64,000 nucleotides of DNA from an uncultured Bacteroidales bacterium (GCA_963739685.1 CAVUAX010000002.1:712323-776322); one strand, 5' to 3'. Numbered from the stretch's first letter, positions 3,315 through 59,974 are shown. The notes: generated by a model from the sequence alone, not told the origin. Numbers and translations: made by a program.

Positions 3315-5270
3315 ATGAATAATTTCAAAGTGAAAAATATTCGCTTTATACTGCAGCTATTGATCATGCTTATGTTCTCTGTTATTACCTCATCTCAATC
3401 TCCAGGTGAGATGAAGAATATTTTTGCGCAGGCAGAGTCATATTATCTTTTTGGGGATTACGAACTGGCAAATCAACTATATATTTTGCTTGAGACCCCG
3501 TCAAATCTAAATATAAAATACAAAATTGGAAACTGCTATCTGAATATACCAGGAGAAAAGGGAAAAGCAATACCCTATCTTGAAGCTGCCGTTGCAGATG
3601 CAAGTTACGATGCAAAACCTGATATGTATAAAGAAAAAAGAGCGCCCCTTGATGCCTTTTTCTTTCTCGCAAAAGCATACATGGTTAATAATGAACTTGA
3701 TAAAGGTCTTAAGACTCTTCTAACCTTCAAAAAACTTGCCGGTGAAACTAAAAGTAAAGGAGGAATGAAAAACCTTGGGTATATTGACCAACAAATAGAA
3801 GCATGTAAGAACGCCATCAAGTTTGAGCAAAATCCTGTAAAATTCATTAAAGAGCCTGTTGGTCCTGAATTTAATCAGGGATCTGTAAACGAGAATCCTG
3901 CTGTCAGCTTTGACGGGAACTCGATTGTTTATACCGAATGCAGAGGAATGGTCAATGTTATATTTTATTCACGAAAAGAGAATGGTCACTGGCAGAAACC
4001 TGTTGAAATAACATCCCTGATAAATGCAGGTGAAGACTGTACATCAAGCGCCCTGAATAAAGATGGTACTCTTCTGTTCCTCTACAAAACAGATAATTAT
4101 GACGGAAATATATATACTTCGGAATTGGTTAACGACAGCTGGACACCAATTAAAAAACTGAATAGAAATATCAATACAAAATTTTATGAGTCTCACGCAG
4201 CAATATCATCCGATGATAAAAAATTATATTTCACAAGCAACAGGGATGGGGGCATAGGTGGTCTTGATATTTATGTCTCCGAAAAAGATGGTTCAGGAGA
4301 CTGGGGACAGGCAGTTAACCTGGGAACCACTATTAACACAAGTTACAATGAGGATACACCTTTCATTACTGCCGACGGTTCAGCCCTCTATTTCTGCTCT
4401 GAAGGTCACAACAGCATGGGAGGTTATGACAACTACAAAAGTCAGAAGCTCGGGACAAGCTGGGAAATACCACAAAACCTTGGATTCCCTATAAATACTA
4501 CAGATGATGATAAATTCTTTCAGCCACTTAATGATGGCCGGAATGCATTTTACTCTATTACAACCGGTTACAAAAAGAAAGAGATATTTTATCTCAGCCT
4601 TGGAAATTCCAACCTCAGCCATGCTTTCGAAATAAGAGGTAAATTAAATTTAAAGGATACCACAGTGGCATTTAATGAAAAATATTCAATTCATCTTTTA
4701 AACAGAGCAACAGGCGATACAATGGACATTGGTTATCCAAACAAATACACAGGGGACTACTCTTTTAATGTGGCACCGGGGTTATTCAGAATAGTTTATA
4801 CCGGCAACGGGTATTTTAAACAAACAATTGATACTTCAATTGTGAAGAATAGTCCTGAAAAGATAGTCACTCTTGATGTTACACTTGAAAAAGATCCTGG
4901 AGCAGCAAATCGTTCCAACCCTTTGCTTTTTAAAAGGATGGACTTTACCGATCTGCCTGTTGTTCAGGCAATAGATTCAAATATACTGATTAAAAATATG
5001 AATATCAACGATATTAATGATAAGAATATTAATGACAGAGACGTTCTTTATTATACTGTTCAGGTAATGGCTTTATATAATCCTGTAGACATCAGTTATT
5101 TTAAATACATTAACGATCTGAGGGTGATGTATAATGAGGTAGACAAATTTTACAGGTACATTACCGGGAAATTTGCTTCAAAAGAGGAAGCATATGCCTT
5201 AAGATTGAAGTTGATAAGATTAGGATATCCCCAGGATCTTTTCATTAAAAAAGTAACCAATGAGGAGTAA
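3315..5270 (+). CDS. Secreted TPR plus PD40 beta-propeller protein with a C-terminal SPOR-like domain
   Basis: ATG at 3315 gives a signal peptide. It shares the N-terminal motif IGNCYLNIPGEKGKAIPYLE with the upstream paralog. PD40 motif FTSNRDGGIGGLDIYVS is present. The C-terminus YYTVQVMALYNPVDISYF...GKFASKEEAYALRLKLIRLGYPQDLFIKKV looks SPOR-like. Confidence 0.75.
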   Translation: MNNFKVKNIRFILQLLIMLMFSVITSSQSPGEMKNIFAQAESYYLFGDYELANQLYILLETPSNLNIKYKIGNCYLNIPGEKGKAIPYLEAAVADASYDAKPDMYKEKRAPLDAFFFLAKAYMVNNELDKGLKTLLTFKKLAGETKSKGGMKNLGYIDQQIEACKNAIKFEQNPVKFIKEPVGPEFNQGSVNENPAVSFDGNSIVYTECRGMVNVIFYSRKENGHWQKPVEITSLINAGEDCTSSALNKDGTLLFLYKTDNYDGNIYTSELVNDSWTPIKKLNRNINTKFYESHAAISSDDKKLYFTSNRDGGIGGLDIYVSEKDGSGDWGQAVNLGTTINTSYNEDTPFITADGSALYFCSEGHNSMGGYDNYKSQKLGTSWEIPQNLGFPINTTDDDKFFQPLNDGRNAFYSITTGYKKKEIFYLSLGNSNLSHAFEIRGKLNLKDTTVAFNEKYSIHLLNRATGDTMDIGYPNKYTGDYSFNVAPGLFRIVYTGNGYFKQTIDTSIVKNSPEKIVTLDVTLEKDPGAANRSNPLLFKRMDFTDLPVVQAIDSNILIKNMNINDINDKNINDRDVLYYTVQVMALYNPVDISYFKYINDLRVMYNEVDKFYRYITGKFASKEEAYALRLKLIRLGYPQDLFIKKVTNEE

Positions 5271-5393
5271 TAACCAGCTTTATTTATTTTTATCAATATC
5301 TTAGACCATAGTGCCTCCAATTTTCACAAGTAACTAGAATGAACTTTTCCTTAAATCCCTGGTGCGGAGAACTGTTTATTTACTTTTAAGATT

Positions 5394-55670: not shown

Positions 55671-57002
<1,332 letters not shown>

Positions 57003-57069
57003 TTAATTATAAATTTGTTTCTATCTCTTCGTGTTCTTATCTGATCCATTCATTGATCATGAATATTGT

Positions 57070-58017
57070 TCAGGTTGTTACAACGTCAGGGCTATAAAGT
57101 AAGGTAGTCAGGTAGCGTTCACCTGTATCCGGAAGTATAACAACAATAATTTTATCTTTATTCCCGGGTCTTAAAGCAACCTGAAGAGCGCCGAAAACAG
57201 CTGCCCCGGACGATATACCTACAATCAGACCTTCGGTGCCGGCAAGCTCCTGTCCGGTGTGAAAGGCCTGTTCATTTTTCACTGTAATAATTTCATCAAT
57301 AACAGACATGTTAAGAACATCCGGTATAAAACCGGCACCAATTCCCTGTATTTTATGAGACCCCGGATTCCCTCCTGACATAACCGGAGAATCAGATGGT
57401 TCCACAGCAATAACCTTTATCCCCGGATTCCTTTTTTTCAGTATTTCACCAACACCGGTTATGGTACCACCAGTTCCGACTCCGGCAACAAAAATATCAA
57501 CTTTTCCATCTGTATCCCTCCATATTTCCTCTGCTGTTGTCTTTCGATGAATATCAGGATTGGCAGGATTCTTAAACTGCTGCGGAATATAAGAATCCGG
57601 TATATTTGATGCCAGTTCCTCAGCTTTCCTGATAGCACCATTCATCCCTTCAGAAGCAGATGTAAGAACAATATCAGCACCAAGGGCTTTTAATAAACTG
57701 CGACGTTCAATGCTCATTGATTCAGGCATTGTCAAAACCAGTTTATAGCCTTTTGCAGCTGCCACAAGTGCTAGTGCAATCCCGGTATTACCACTGGTGG
57801 GTTCAATTATAACCGTATTTTCTTTTATTAGCCCCTTCTCTTCAGCAGCTTTTATCATAGAATATCCGATACGGTCTTTAACACTGCCTCCCGGATTGAA
57901 ACTTTCGAGTTTTGCCAGCAGAACAGATTGAAGATTTTTTGACCTGTTATAGTTGGTCAATTCCAACAATGGTGTGTTACCTATAAGGTCTGTCAGACTT
58001 TTTGCAATTTTACTCAT
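57070..58017 (-). CDS. cysK: Cysteine synthase A (O-acetylserine sulfhydrylase)
   Basis: [11 protein letters not shown] lysine [21 protein letters not shown] and [11 protein letters not shown] prefer the ATG at 58017. The 54-codon upstream extension in the track has no similarity to CysK. Confidence 0.93.
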
Positions 58018-58103
58018 ATCTTTTAATTTTTTATAATATGCAAAGATCAGCTTATTGGAATAGCGTTTGCAATACCACAAACAGGGTATTTTACCAAACT
58101 GTA

Positions 58104-58136
58104 ATAAGAATAAACAATTGCGGGATTTAAAAAATC
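58104..58136. repeat. 33-bp direct repeat, left copy
   Basis: ATAAGAATAAACAATTGCGGGATTTAAAAAATC versus 58901-58933 ATAAGAATAAACAATTGAGGGATTTAAAAAATC, with 1 mismatch. Confidence 0.9.
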
Positions 58137-58288
58137 CTGACTTCTGACGATTAGTGCGGTCATTGTAGAAGTGCTGCATTGAGGAAAACAGGAAAAGTGG
58201 TTCTGATGTGCAGCAGAATAAGGCATCCTTTTATAAACGATCAGGCAGGTAGTACTCTGTTACTTTATTTTTAATTGTGAGGCGATAA

Positions 58289-58386
58289 GCCACGAAGTGG
58301 CTAAATATGAATAACCCCCGGCGCAGCCTTGCAAGCCGGGGGTAAGATAACACTCTGTTTTATAGCCCTGAAAGGGCGCAATATAA
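58289..58386 (+). ncRNA. Three-hairpin structured module, copy A (candidate RNA or DNA structure)
   Basis: GCCAC-GAA-GTGGC, ATATGAATAA, CCCCCGGC-loop-GCCGGGGG, then GCCCT-GAA-AGGGC. Confidence 0.35.
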
Positions 58387-58440
58387 TTGGATCTCAACGT
58401 ACTTATTGAATATATTAAGAATCAAGTTGAACATCGATTA

Positions 58441-58556
58441 CTTATATCCCGCTCCTTCAGAGCTCATGTTATATGTGGCACCAACCCCCCGGCTTGCGAG
58501 GCTGTGTGCACAGCCTCTTGCGCCGGGGGTTATTCATATCTGGCTCTTTCAGAGCC
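58441..58556 (-). ncRNA. Three-hairpin structured module, copy B (inverted relative to copy A)
   Basis: The minus strand reads GGCTCT-GAA-AGAGCC, ATATGAATAA, CCCCCGGC...GCCGGGGG with an extra palindromic insert GAGGCTGTGCACACAGCCTC, then GCTCT-GAA-GGAGC. Confidence 0.35.
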
Positions 58557-58777
58557 TATACCCCATTCAATGACAGCACTTCTTGTTTTTGTTCATGAAA
58601 TATATTGGTCTGAAAAGTCATCTCTATGACCATGCGAGCTTTCTTTATGAGAAGATCTGATTCCATATTATCTTTGGCACTCCCAATATGTTTATCAATC
58701 TTTGCCAGATACCCAATATATAGAAACACCTGAATTGCATTTACCCTCCATTTAGTCCATACCTTTCTGACTAACCC
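58556..58777 (-). pseudogene. Start-less 73-codon ORF remnant, possibly the C-terminal half of a four-helix-bundle (23S rRNA IVS protein-like) gene
   Basis: My own translation is GLVRKVWTKWRVNAIQVFLYIGYLAKIDKHIGSAKDNMESDLLIKKARMVIEMTFQTNIFHEQKQEVLSLNGV. There is no ATG before codon 38. The family assignment rests only on a loose I-G-S-x4-M-E-x2-L-L-I resemblance. Confidence 0.2.
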
Positions 58778-58900
58778 TTATATATAAGGTAAAAATAGGC
58801 GTTAGTGCGGTAAAAATCTAAATTTAAAATTTTATATTATTAATTTTCAATTACTTGAAAATTACAACCGCACTAAAATCAGAAAGTGTCAGAAGTCAGG

Positions 58901-58933
58901 ATAAGAATAAACAATTGAGGGATTTAAAAAATC
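58901..58933. repeat. 33-bp direct repeat, right copy (overlaps the response-regulator stop codon by 2 nt)
   Basis: See 58104-58136. Confidence 0.9.
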
Positions 58934-59573
58934 AGATATAATACTCGGTAGTGTCAATAATGCCTTTTTTAACTGCATACATCAGTAATTCAGAACTATT
59001 ATTGATATTTAATTTTCTATAGATATTCTTCCGGTGTGTAACAATAGTATGTACGCTCAGAAATTTCTTTGAGGCAATCTCTTTTGTTGTAAATCCCTGG
59101 GCTATCAGTCTTACTATTGCTTTTTCAGCCTTTGAAAGGTCAATATTTCCATTGTTATCCTTACTTTTGCTGTTCATAATAATATCAGACACATTTTTAT
59201 CAAAATATTTATTTTTGTTGAGGGCAGCATGAATAGCTTTCTCAATAGTTTCCCTCTCACAGTCTTTAAATATTAAATCAATGATACCGGCATCCAGGAT
59301 TTTGCGAATATAACTGTATTGTTTATTAGAGGTAATTACCAGAATGGAGGTATCATAATTTCGTTTTCTGAAAACAGATAATTCAACTATGTCGTTAATT
59401 ATGGCGGTGTTGGGATCAATGATTAAAAGTTCTGTATTGTTTTCCGGAACAATCTGTAACAGCTCACCGGGTGTAAAAATTTCTTTTATTTCAGCATCCT
59501 GAAACAGTTCTTTCACCAGAGAAAATGTGCCACTTCTGGAGAGGTAATGATTATCGGCAATAATAATTTTCAT
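58932..59573 (-). CDS. LuxR/NarL family response regulator
   Basis: Receiver domain (MKIIIADNH, ELLIIDPN, VITS) plus a C-terminal HTH, LSKAEKAIVRLIAQGFTTKEIASKKFLSVHTIVTHRKNIYRKL. I prefer the ATG at 59573. Confidence 0.85.
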   Translation of the reverse strand: MKIIIADNHYLSRSGTFSLVKELFQDAEIKEIFTPGELLQIVPENNTELLIIDPNTAIINDIVELSVFRKRNYDTSILVITSNKQYSYIRKILDAGIIDLIFKDCERETIEKAIHAALNKNKYFDKNVSDIIMNSKSKDNNGNIDLSKAEKAIVRLIAQGFTTKEIASKKFLSVHTIVTHRKNIYRKLNINNSSELLMYAVKKGIIDTTEYYI

Positions 59574-59974
59574 CCTTAATATATTCTCCCCCAAAAGTAG
59601 TATTAAAAAGCCTTAATGAGAATATCCTGAACAGGAATGCATAAATAAAATGACTTTAAGATACCTGATGATATATCAGGTTTTTCCATTAATAAATGAT
59701 TTAATGATAACCTCAGGGAATTCCTTTTTTAGACGAAACTGGGCCAGTCTTCCATAACGAAAAGATATTCAAATCTTATGCCAGGTTAAATTACAGAAGA
59801 ATAAACAATGAGGGTGATAATAAAAGAGCTGACTCTATCAGAATTCTCAAACTTCAGTTATATGAATTAACTTATTTCCTGGTCCAATAGTTCAAATTTT
59901 CTGTTAATAAGAAAATATTTATTGCAACTTTTAGAAATTGTATTTATATTGCACCCGTTAAAACAAATTAAAGA

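Follow-up and report, generated by a model that had tools for sequence, protein, structure and literature searches.

The question raised by this locus is what two convergent copies of a three-hairpin sequence represent in the genome of an uncultured Bacteroidales bacterium. The window, that is the whole stretch of DNA that was analysed, comprises 64,000 nucleotides (GCA_963739685.1, CAVUAX010000002.1:712323-776322), and the two copies, named here module A and module B, lie between its positions 58285 and 58559. The first-pass annotation, made from the sequence alone, described the pair as a selected RNA or single-stranded DNA fold and proposed that it could be the 3' untranslated region (UTR) or terminator of a former gene, or else a miniature inverted-repeat transposable element (MITE) of about 270 bp. 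The reading preferred here, with a probability of about 0.8, is that the modules form the two ends, left and right, of a small transposon of the IS200-like (Y1/HUH) kind, which has lost its gene and is nested in a derivative of an IS1634-family insertion sequence (IS). The features of the inner element are listed below; bit scores are those of R1, a covariance model built from 31 copies of the module family and comprising 93 model positions and three helices.

58285-58385, plus strand: module A, the Y1-element end of upstream type (R1 79.5 bits, E 1e-14)
58289-58301, 58315-58342 and 58365-58377, plus strand: hairpins P1, P2 and P3 of module A, with the linker ATATGAATAA between P1 and P2
58389-58435, plus strand: remains of the gene for the Y1/HUH transposase, 47 bp lying between the modules, of which 58390-58434 (45 nt) read in frame as DLNVLIEYIKNQVEH, the catalytic-tyrosine motif
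58443-58559, minus strand: module B, the Y1-element end of downstream type, in inverted orientation (R1 68.0 bits, E 4e-12)
58542-58556, 58486-58529 and 58451-58463, minus strand: hairpins P1, P2 and P3 of module B, with an extra GAGGCTGTGCACACAGCCTC hairpin at 58498-58517 inside P2

The nature of the pair is given by related loci in which the space between the modules is still occupied. Many of them have an A-type module separated by about 650 bp from an inverted module of the B type, and the open reading frame (ORF) in between encodes 148 amino acids, as in L023, L104, L045, L061, L067 and L094. This protein belongs to the Pfam family Y1_Tnp ('Transposase IS200 like', PF01797; 70.7 bits against a cut-off of 23, E 1.6e-19). 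Its sole NCBIfam match is transpos_IS200 at 50.1 bits, under the cut-off of 55, and its only relative with a solved structure is the ISHp608 TnpA of IS608. Among 16 family members H54, H56, Y114, Q118 and H122 are invariant and H121 is nearly so; the HUH motif is NH[LI]H and the catalytic-tyrosine motif is Y-x3-Q-x2-HH, here YIKNQQEHH. The Y1 gene, whole or as a remnant, was identified by tblastn beside modules in 17 of the fetched loci. Relatives of the protein fill at least 1828 clusters (90% identity), labelled 'putative transposase' or 'RayT', the latter label (JGI) being a generic COG name.

Because these first loci had been selected through the DNA motif, the association was also approached from the other side. 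Three proteins of 75-91% identity were taken from the protein search without reference to the DNA motif and their contigs were fetched. All five loci contained a plus-strand module upstream and a minus-strand module downstream of the Y1 gene, with R1 scores of 82-87 bits. The upstream module ends about 66-70 nt before the start codon (+) and the downstream module (-) starts about 5 nt past the stop codon. On both sides conservation ends at the foot of P1 or a few bases from it, and the intact element is therefore taken to be about 710 bp long with a P1 hairpin at each tip. The exception is the metagenome-assembled genome (MAG) MFD05674.bin.2.1, where about 12 more bases are conserved upstream of P1.

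Two further Y1 loci deserve mention. L061 (CAVVBV010000030.1), from a MAG labelled as an uncultured member of the Gammaproteobacteria, contains two Bacteroidales-type Y1 elements, one of them frameshifted, with proteins 86-88% identical to the Bacteroidales copies; binning error or horizontal transfer may explain this. The Bacteroidales MAG MFD02416.bin.2.232 has, at L073 6668-7102 (minus strand), another Y1 gene that is only distantly related (31% identity, motif YIENQEETH); a truncated copy of the element lies within a few kb, and no R1-type module was reported beside the gene.

The window copy is what remains of such an element after its gene was lost. Four full-length relatives of the locus are available from MFD02416.bin.2.232 (L055, L092, L010 and L057), and the least reduced of them, L092, retains between A and B the 5' UTR, codons 1-17 (MSSYRQHLYHLVFRTKQ), and codons ~107-148 with the stop codon. 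In the alignment of the five copies two further deletions with identical junctions are common to the window, L055, L057 and L010. The window doublet is thus the pair of ends of a single transposon that lost its gene through two internal deletions. The MITE proposed earlier stands in so far as the pair forms the two ends of a miniature, non-autonomous element. It is not a classical MITE with terminal inverted repeats, its fuller identity being an internally deleted Y1/HUH (IS200-like) element, and in MFD02416.bin.2.232, the one MAG found to carry this element, the unit that multiplied is the enclosing IS1634-derived element.

In the window itself the two convergent copies have the sequence, the coordinates and the shared perfect blocks first attributed to them. 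Within the 64 kb the 21-mer ATATGAATAACCCCCGGCGCA has exactly two occurrences, one at 58305-58325 (+) and the other at 58519-58539 (-), where 0.01 would be expected by chance even with 3 mismatches allowed; GCAAGCCGGGGG is found at 58331-58342 (+) and 58486-58497 (-), against 0.07 expected. Pairwise alignment of A and B shows a common core flanked by hairpins whose stems differ and still pair, so that each copy folds into three hairpins, as had been claimed. The closing pair of P3 in module B is a T.G wobble. Compared with shuffled sequences, the folds reach -39.0 kcal/mol (z -3.6) for A and -52.6 (z -5.4) for B with RNA parameters, and -25.8 (z -5.7) and -28.6 (z -5.6), respectively, with DNA parameters. 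The self-complementary insert noted earlier in the central stem of B is also present, and it differs among copies, being 6 bp shorter (GAGGCTGCAGCCTC) in L055 and L057. P2 therefore tolerates an extension hairpin of variable size. Pattern search, BLAST and the covariance model identified no module in the window beyond A and B.

The module belongs to a wider family. The 16-mer ATGAATAACCCCCGGC was scanned over one genome per species and gave at least 115 loci, of which about half are chance matches within genes of unrelated bacteria. The remaining loci share one common layout and come from MAGs of Bacteroidales, Rikenellaceae, Chitinophagaceae, Balneolaceae and Ignavibacteriota; viral contigs scanned with the same 16-mer gave no match. 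The layout comprises a terminal hairpin P1, the linker (A/T)AATATGAATAA, the G+C-rich P2 (CCCCCGGC-loop-GCCGGGGG), about 22 unconserved bases and P3, followed on its 3' side by TGAATA, TTAATA or TGAACA. The stems of P1 and P3 take forms such as GCCAC/GTGGC, AACCCC/GGGGTT, GGCTCT/AGAGCC, AACCCG/CGGGTT and AACCGC/GCGGTT. Their loops are overwhelmingly G-N-A, with GAA in 32 of 60 P1 and 42 of 60 P3 hairpins and GCA and GGA as variants. R1 identified 102 modules in the 516 kb of collected loci, among them partner copies in which the exact 16-mer is absent. Modules were seen singly, in clusters and as inverted pairs whose spacers differ. All 85 full-length modules lie outside ORFs of at least 150 amino acids, though such ORFs make up 72% of those loci, and module orientation shows no bias relative to the neighbouring genes (18/16/14/11).

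The stems of the module are under selection for structure, as shown by covariation across the family. In the model-fitted alignment 95.7% of the pair cells are paired, against 83.3% in column shuffles, and two-sided changes are found in 17 of the 20 pairs (6/6 in P1 and 5/6 in P3). When the 3' partners are slid by 1-3 columns pairing falls to at most 58%. A structure-blind MAFFT alignment gives a similar picture, with 94.5% paired against 85.7% in the shuffles and a covariation score of 0.30 against 0.14. The earlier statement that a structure preserved while its sequence changes points to a selected fold is borne out by these figures, and the covariance-model scan proposed along with it found many relatives with their stems kept. 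P1 and P3 also resemble each other: their arms share 4.12 identical positions of 6 within a module against 3.45 between modules, a likeness reached in none of 2000 shuffles, and in most Ignavibacteriota copies the arms of P1 and P3 are identical. In the intact element at L107 (1141-1845) the outer hairpins are swapped, with a GCTCT-type P1 upstream and a TCCAC-type P1 downstream while the P3 hairpins remain on their usual sides, so that the hairpins behave as exchangeable parts.

The comparison with Rfam, also proposed in the first-pass annotation, matched no family. The best match for the window region was P15 at 21.7 bits (gathering score 70), which is not credible, and a permissive search with five other module loci gave no match at E <=0.01. 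The module was not described in the literature searched on RAYT and REPIN in Bacteroidetes, on REPtron, TnpAREP and subclass 1.2, on Ignavibacteria with IS200, and on COG1943/PF01797. The table of repetitive extragenic palindromic (REP) sequences in PMC6006769 contains no CCCCCGG-type sequence and nothing that resembles a three-hairpin module. Within the scope of Rfam, this literature and that table, the family appears to be previously undescribed.

The outer element comprises the features listed below.

58104-58136, no strand: left target-site duplication, ATAAGAATAAACAATTGCGGGATTTAAAAAATC, 32/33 identical to 58901-58933 and abutting the element
58137-58160, plus strand: left terminal inverted repeat, CTGACTTCTGACGATTAGTGCGGT, forming an inverted repeat with 58867-58900
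58161-58284, no strand: left arm of the IS derivative, conserved among the MFD02416.bin.2.232 copies
58574-58771, minus strand: relic of an IS1634-family DDE transposase, residues 4-70, the 'ORF remnant' of the first-pass annotation
58867-58900, minus strand: right terminal inverted repeat, reverse complement CCTGACTTCTGACACTTTCTGATTTTAGTGCGGT
58901-58933, no strand: right target-site duplication, overlapping the stop codon (58932-58934) of a gene for a LuxR-type response regulator

The 764 bp from 58137 to 58900 are bounded by imperfect terminal inverted repeats, CTGACTTCTGAC...TTAGTGCGGT. MFD02416.bin.2.232 contains at least eight copies of this element at 92-97% identity, four full-length and four truncated on the right. 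Locus-specific direct repeats abut both ends of every full-length copy: 33 bp with one mismatch in the window, 55-56 bp (perfect) in L055, ~60 in L092, ~83 in L010 and ~38 in L057. A metagenome scan with the terminal-repeat pattern identified in L161 and L180 an element of 1628 bp that shares these ends and whose 499-residue protein matches NCBIfam transpos_IS1634 (316.8 bits, cut-off 100) and Pfam DDE_Tnp_1. The left terminal repeat of the window is identical to the end of the 1628-bp IS in L180 at 22 of 24 positions and to other derivatives at 24 of 24, and window positions 58660-58899 align at 72% with positions 1394-1628 of the parent IS. The left arm (58161-58284) has no significant similarity to the L180 parent.

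The ORF remnant matches nothing in Pfam or NCBIfam by itself and was identified only through the parent IS found by way of the terminal repeats. It is 48% identical to the L180 transposase over 67 residues (E 9e-16 pairwise, 3.9e-11 by tblastn with the whole window). Module B does abut the stop codon of this remnant, as was reported. The suggestion that B is the 3' UTR or terminator of the former gene fails, however: the remnant is the N-terminal 67 residues of an IS1634-family transposase, cut at the Y1 element, and its stop codon is a junction artefact since the reading frame runs into module B.

Nine other insertions of the IS or of its derivatives (e.g. L137, L138, L219 and L223) are flanked by target duplications of 24-120 bp, the repeats that abut further metagenome derivatives measuring 24, 72, 75 and 120 bp. 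A retroelement-type insertion had been considered as the source of such long and variable duplications and was dropped once the IS1634-family parent had come to light. IS1634 and IS1549 are reported to make direct repeats of 8-514 bp, for which no model of the mechanism had been put forward (PMC2266710), and the parent IS shares with these elements an IS1634-profile transposase, terminal inverted repeats and long variable target duplications. Most members of the IS1634 family are reported with duplications of 5-6 bp, unlike the 24-120 bp seen here, and to the long, variable type the enclosing element contributes cases from Bacteroidales. The window copy also differs from the family in being non-autonomous, with only transposase residues 4-70, and in carrying a foreign Y1 element as cargo. 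Every doublet seen in MFD02416.bin.2.232 sits in the IS1634-derived element and both deletion junctions are present in four of the five full-length copies, the window included; the doublet was therefore multiplied passively, by IS1634-type transposition.

Y1 cargo is not limited to this lineage. In several different non-autonomous derivatives of the same IS on metagenome contigs, Y1 genes or modules replace the DDE transposase (L189 214-1637; L137 12058-13935; L138 208-1147; L219 4753-5818; L121; L169). The cargo junctions differ: in L219 the junction follows codon 41 of the IS transposase, in the window family it lies near codon 70, and in L189 it comes with a C-terminal relic. The Y1 subfamilies involved differ as well (35-68% identity). 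This recurrent nesting could reflect a target preference or hitch-hiking.

By analogy with characterised Y1 transposases, the modules would most likely be single-stranded-DNA recognition ends, folded as DNA and bound and cut by a Y1 enzyme. In single-stranded DNA, for example at the replication fork, P1 and P3 would form short hairpins, mostly with G-N-A triloops, and P2 a G+C-rich hairpin. The enzyme would read both the hairpins in their folded form and the linker (A)TATGAATAA, which is invariant and single-stranded, and would cut beside P1, as the TnpA of IS200/IS605 and the REP-associated TnpA do at their own hairpins. The analogy is based on the hairpin recognition and cutting described for IS200/IS605 TnpA and TnpA_REP (PMC5027513, PMC3479197, PMC8266576). 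Pairing alone being required, the stems could drift by compensatory changes, and this would account for the compensatory stem differences between A and B noted at first. Triloops of the d(GNA) type closed by C-G are exceptionally stable in DNA (PMC13037366, PMC3201870), and a DNA fold is favoured for this reason. Of the two folds first offered, selection for structure holds for both, and single-stranded DNA is more likely than RNA.

The likeness of P1 and P3 suggests, speculatively, that each module contains two equivalent binding sites brought together by P2. A tentative and rather doubtful extension is that the modules are the cognate single-stranded-DNA substrates of the Y-x3-Q-x2-HH Y1 enzymes, the group that the 2018 survey (PMC6006769) lists as subclass 1.2, and that they act as composites, P1 and P3 being clamped by P2 so that one module could fill both sites of a Y1 dimer. 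Were they the cognate substrates, a class-1 enzyme would here form the basis of a REPtron-like system. A large and poorly characterised group of IS200-like Y1/HUH proteins is linked to a defined, strongly covarying DNA module, which offers biochemistry a concrete substrate on how Y1 enzymes read folded DNA.

Several points weigh against the preferred reading of the modules as Y1-transposon ends. No Y1 gene was identified in the window by tblastn and no cognate-type Y1 gene in the eight loci of MFD02416.bin.2.232, so that the local copy may be wholly inert. The ends are inverted repeats, unlike those of characterised IS200/IS605 elements, and strand-specific Y1 processing of both ends is for that reason not obvious. 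The modules fold equally well on both strands, with RNA and DNA parameters alike. The near-invariance of P2 is partly an artefact because the 16-mer used for collection contains half of P2. Finally, the family sequences are kin by descent, and the shuffle statistics and counts given above are therefore not probabilities.

Among known Y1 systems the arrangement works like a REPtron or REPIN, yet it fails the defining features of REPs. The likenesses are a Y1/HUH gene bracketed by inverted copies of a repeat (in the related loci, not in the window), an extragenic repeat of which gene-less copies exist too, alone, in inverted pairs or in clusters, a doublet that folds into one long hairpin as REPINs do, and stems that evolve by compensatory change. 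The differences begin at the foot of the hairpin, where the GT[AG]G (or CGTC) of REPs is absent and the bases 5' of P1 are variable and A/T-rich. Within about 95 nt the module has three hairpins and a linker that is conserved and single-stranded, whereas a REP is a single palindrome of 20-40 nt; the known range of REP-like repeats thereby gains a three-hairpin, G-N-A-triloop design. TnpA_REP proteins have the motif YxxxNP and class-1 (IS200-like) proteins Y-x3-Q-x2-HH (PMC6006769). The protein described here has the class-1 motif, matches no NCBIfam RayT model and has PDB relatives only in IS608 TnpA.

With IS200/IS605 elements such as IS608 and ISDra2 the Y1 element shares a transposase of about 150 residues that is Y1_Tnp by its Pfam score and has HUH and tyrosine motifs, and hairpins at both ends. 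IS200/IS605 elements insert 3' of a short specific target sequence and duplicate no target; at independent module tips neither a short duplication nor a conserved flank was evident by eye. Single-strand 'peel and paste' would be the expected mechanism. The hairpins of the characterised members are on the same strand and subterminal, however, whereas here inverted repeats of about 100 bp carry a hairpin at the very tip, and the sub-threshold score with transpos_IS200 is a further difference. As judged from motifs, the closest described group is TnpAY1 subclass 1.2 (Quentin et al. 2018, PMC6006769), which has YIKNQKEHH where YIKNQQEHH is found here, a median length of 148 residues, equal to that of the present protein, and occurs in Bacteroidetes. 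This subclass is reported to have no REP and generally no IS200-type terminal structures (PMC6006769), in contrast to the Y1 genes described here, which are consistently flanked by structured modules. The HUH motif (NH[LI]H here, DH[IV]H there) and the W motif (WA/WE here, WQ there) differ as well.

Three other explanations were considered. That the module is a structured RNA (a small RNA, a 3'-UTR stabiliser or a terminator), with its link to the transposase being regulation of that gene, is very unlikely. It would account for folds as good with RNA as with DNA parameters, and for the pair closing the P3 loop: on the module strand 43 cells have T.G there and a single one has A.C, so that this hairpin forms better on one strand. 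That position, however, may just belong to a five-nucleotide loop, and the wobble asymmetry, tried as a clue to the active strand and confined to one position of P3, was given little weight. The antisense of P2 in module B (58515-58529, +) is followed by TTATTCATAT and has a terminator-like score; in intact elements this combination would lie just past the Y1 stop codon and could serve the gene as a terminator. The modules nevertheless coincide exactly with the outer limits of a unit that bears a transposase, their orientation shows no bias with respect to the genes on either side, and in inverted pairs a single transcript would hold one sense and one antisense copy. The lack of Rfam matches for the window and the five other loci, and the G-N-A triloops, a hallmark of DNA hairpins rather than of RNA, also argue against an RNA.

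It is improbable that the doublet of about 270 bp is an active, REPIN-like miniature element moved by a Y1 enzyme encoded elsewhere, with the IS1634 context incidental. Both outer P1 tips are intact, the entire doublet folds as single-stranded DNA into one long REPIN-like hairpin (-71.3 kcal/mol, z -10.3), and gene-less doublets occur in other MAGs, with 158 bp between motif starts in L056 and almost no spacer in L051 and L102. Against this, the eight doublets recovered from MFD02416.bin.2.232 and the window copy occupy the same position inside the same IS1634-derived element, and among the matches listed no doublet of that MAG has a different context. The window and three of the four full-length MAG copies have both deletion junctions in common, L092 keeping more of the gene, and the duplicated flanks belong to the outer element. 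A role for the host, as proposed for REPs (protein binding, supercoiling or termination) and for which solo copies would be kept, is unlikely too. The strictly extragenic location (85/85) speaks for such a role, but purifying selection against gene disruption makes any transposon extragenic too. The core ATGAATAACCCCCGG is strongly conserved across phyla, a conservation that the search pattern inflates. In Ignavibacteriota solo modules have no Y1 gene within the fetched 8 kb; position and orientation relative to genes, however, show no regularity.

With the modules read as transposon ends, the nested relics fill an intergenic region of 914 bp. This region runs from 58932, the stop of the gene for the LuxR-type response regulator, to 58017, where cysK (MSKIAKSL...) probably begins. 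Downstream of cysK follows an O-acetylhomoserine-sulfhydrylase-like gene, and all three genes are on the minus strand (region 55671-59594). The insertion stands between cysK and transcription from upstream; read on the minus strand, P2 of module A appears in antisense just before this gene. In the annotation of the window a candidate non-coding RNA is removed and the gap upstream of cysK becomes two nested transposon relics. A different short hairpin repeat, typical of Bacteroidota, GTCATTCC(T/G)(G/A)GCGTTAGCG(C/A)(A/G)GAATCTC, was identified directly beside some truncated copies of the element, at L036 ~5270-5330, L073 ~290-350 and L025 ~4440-4480.

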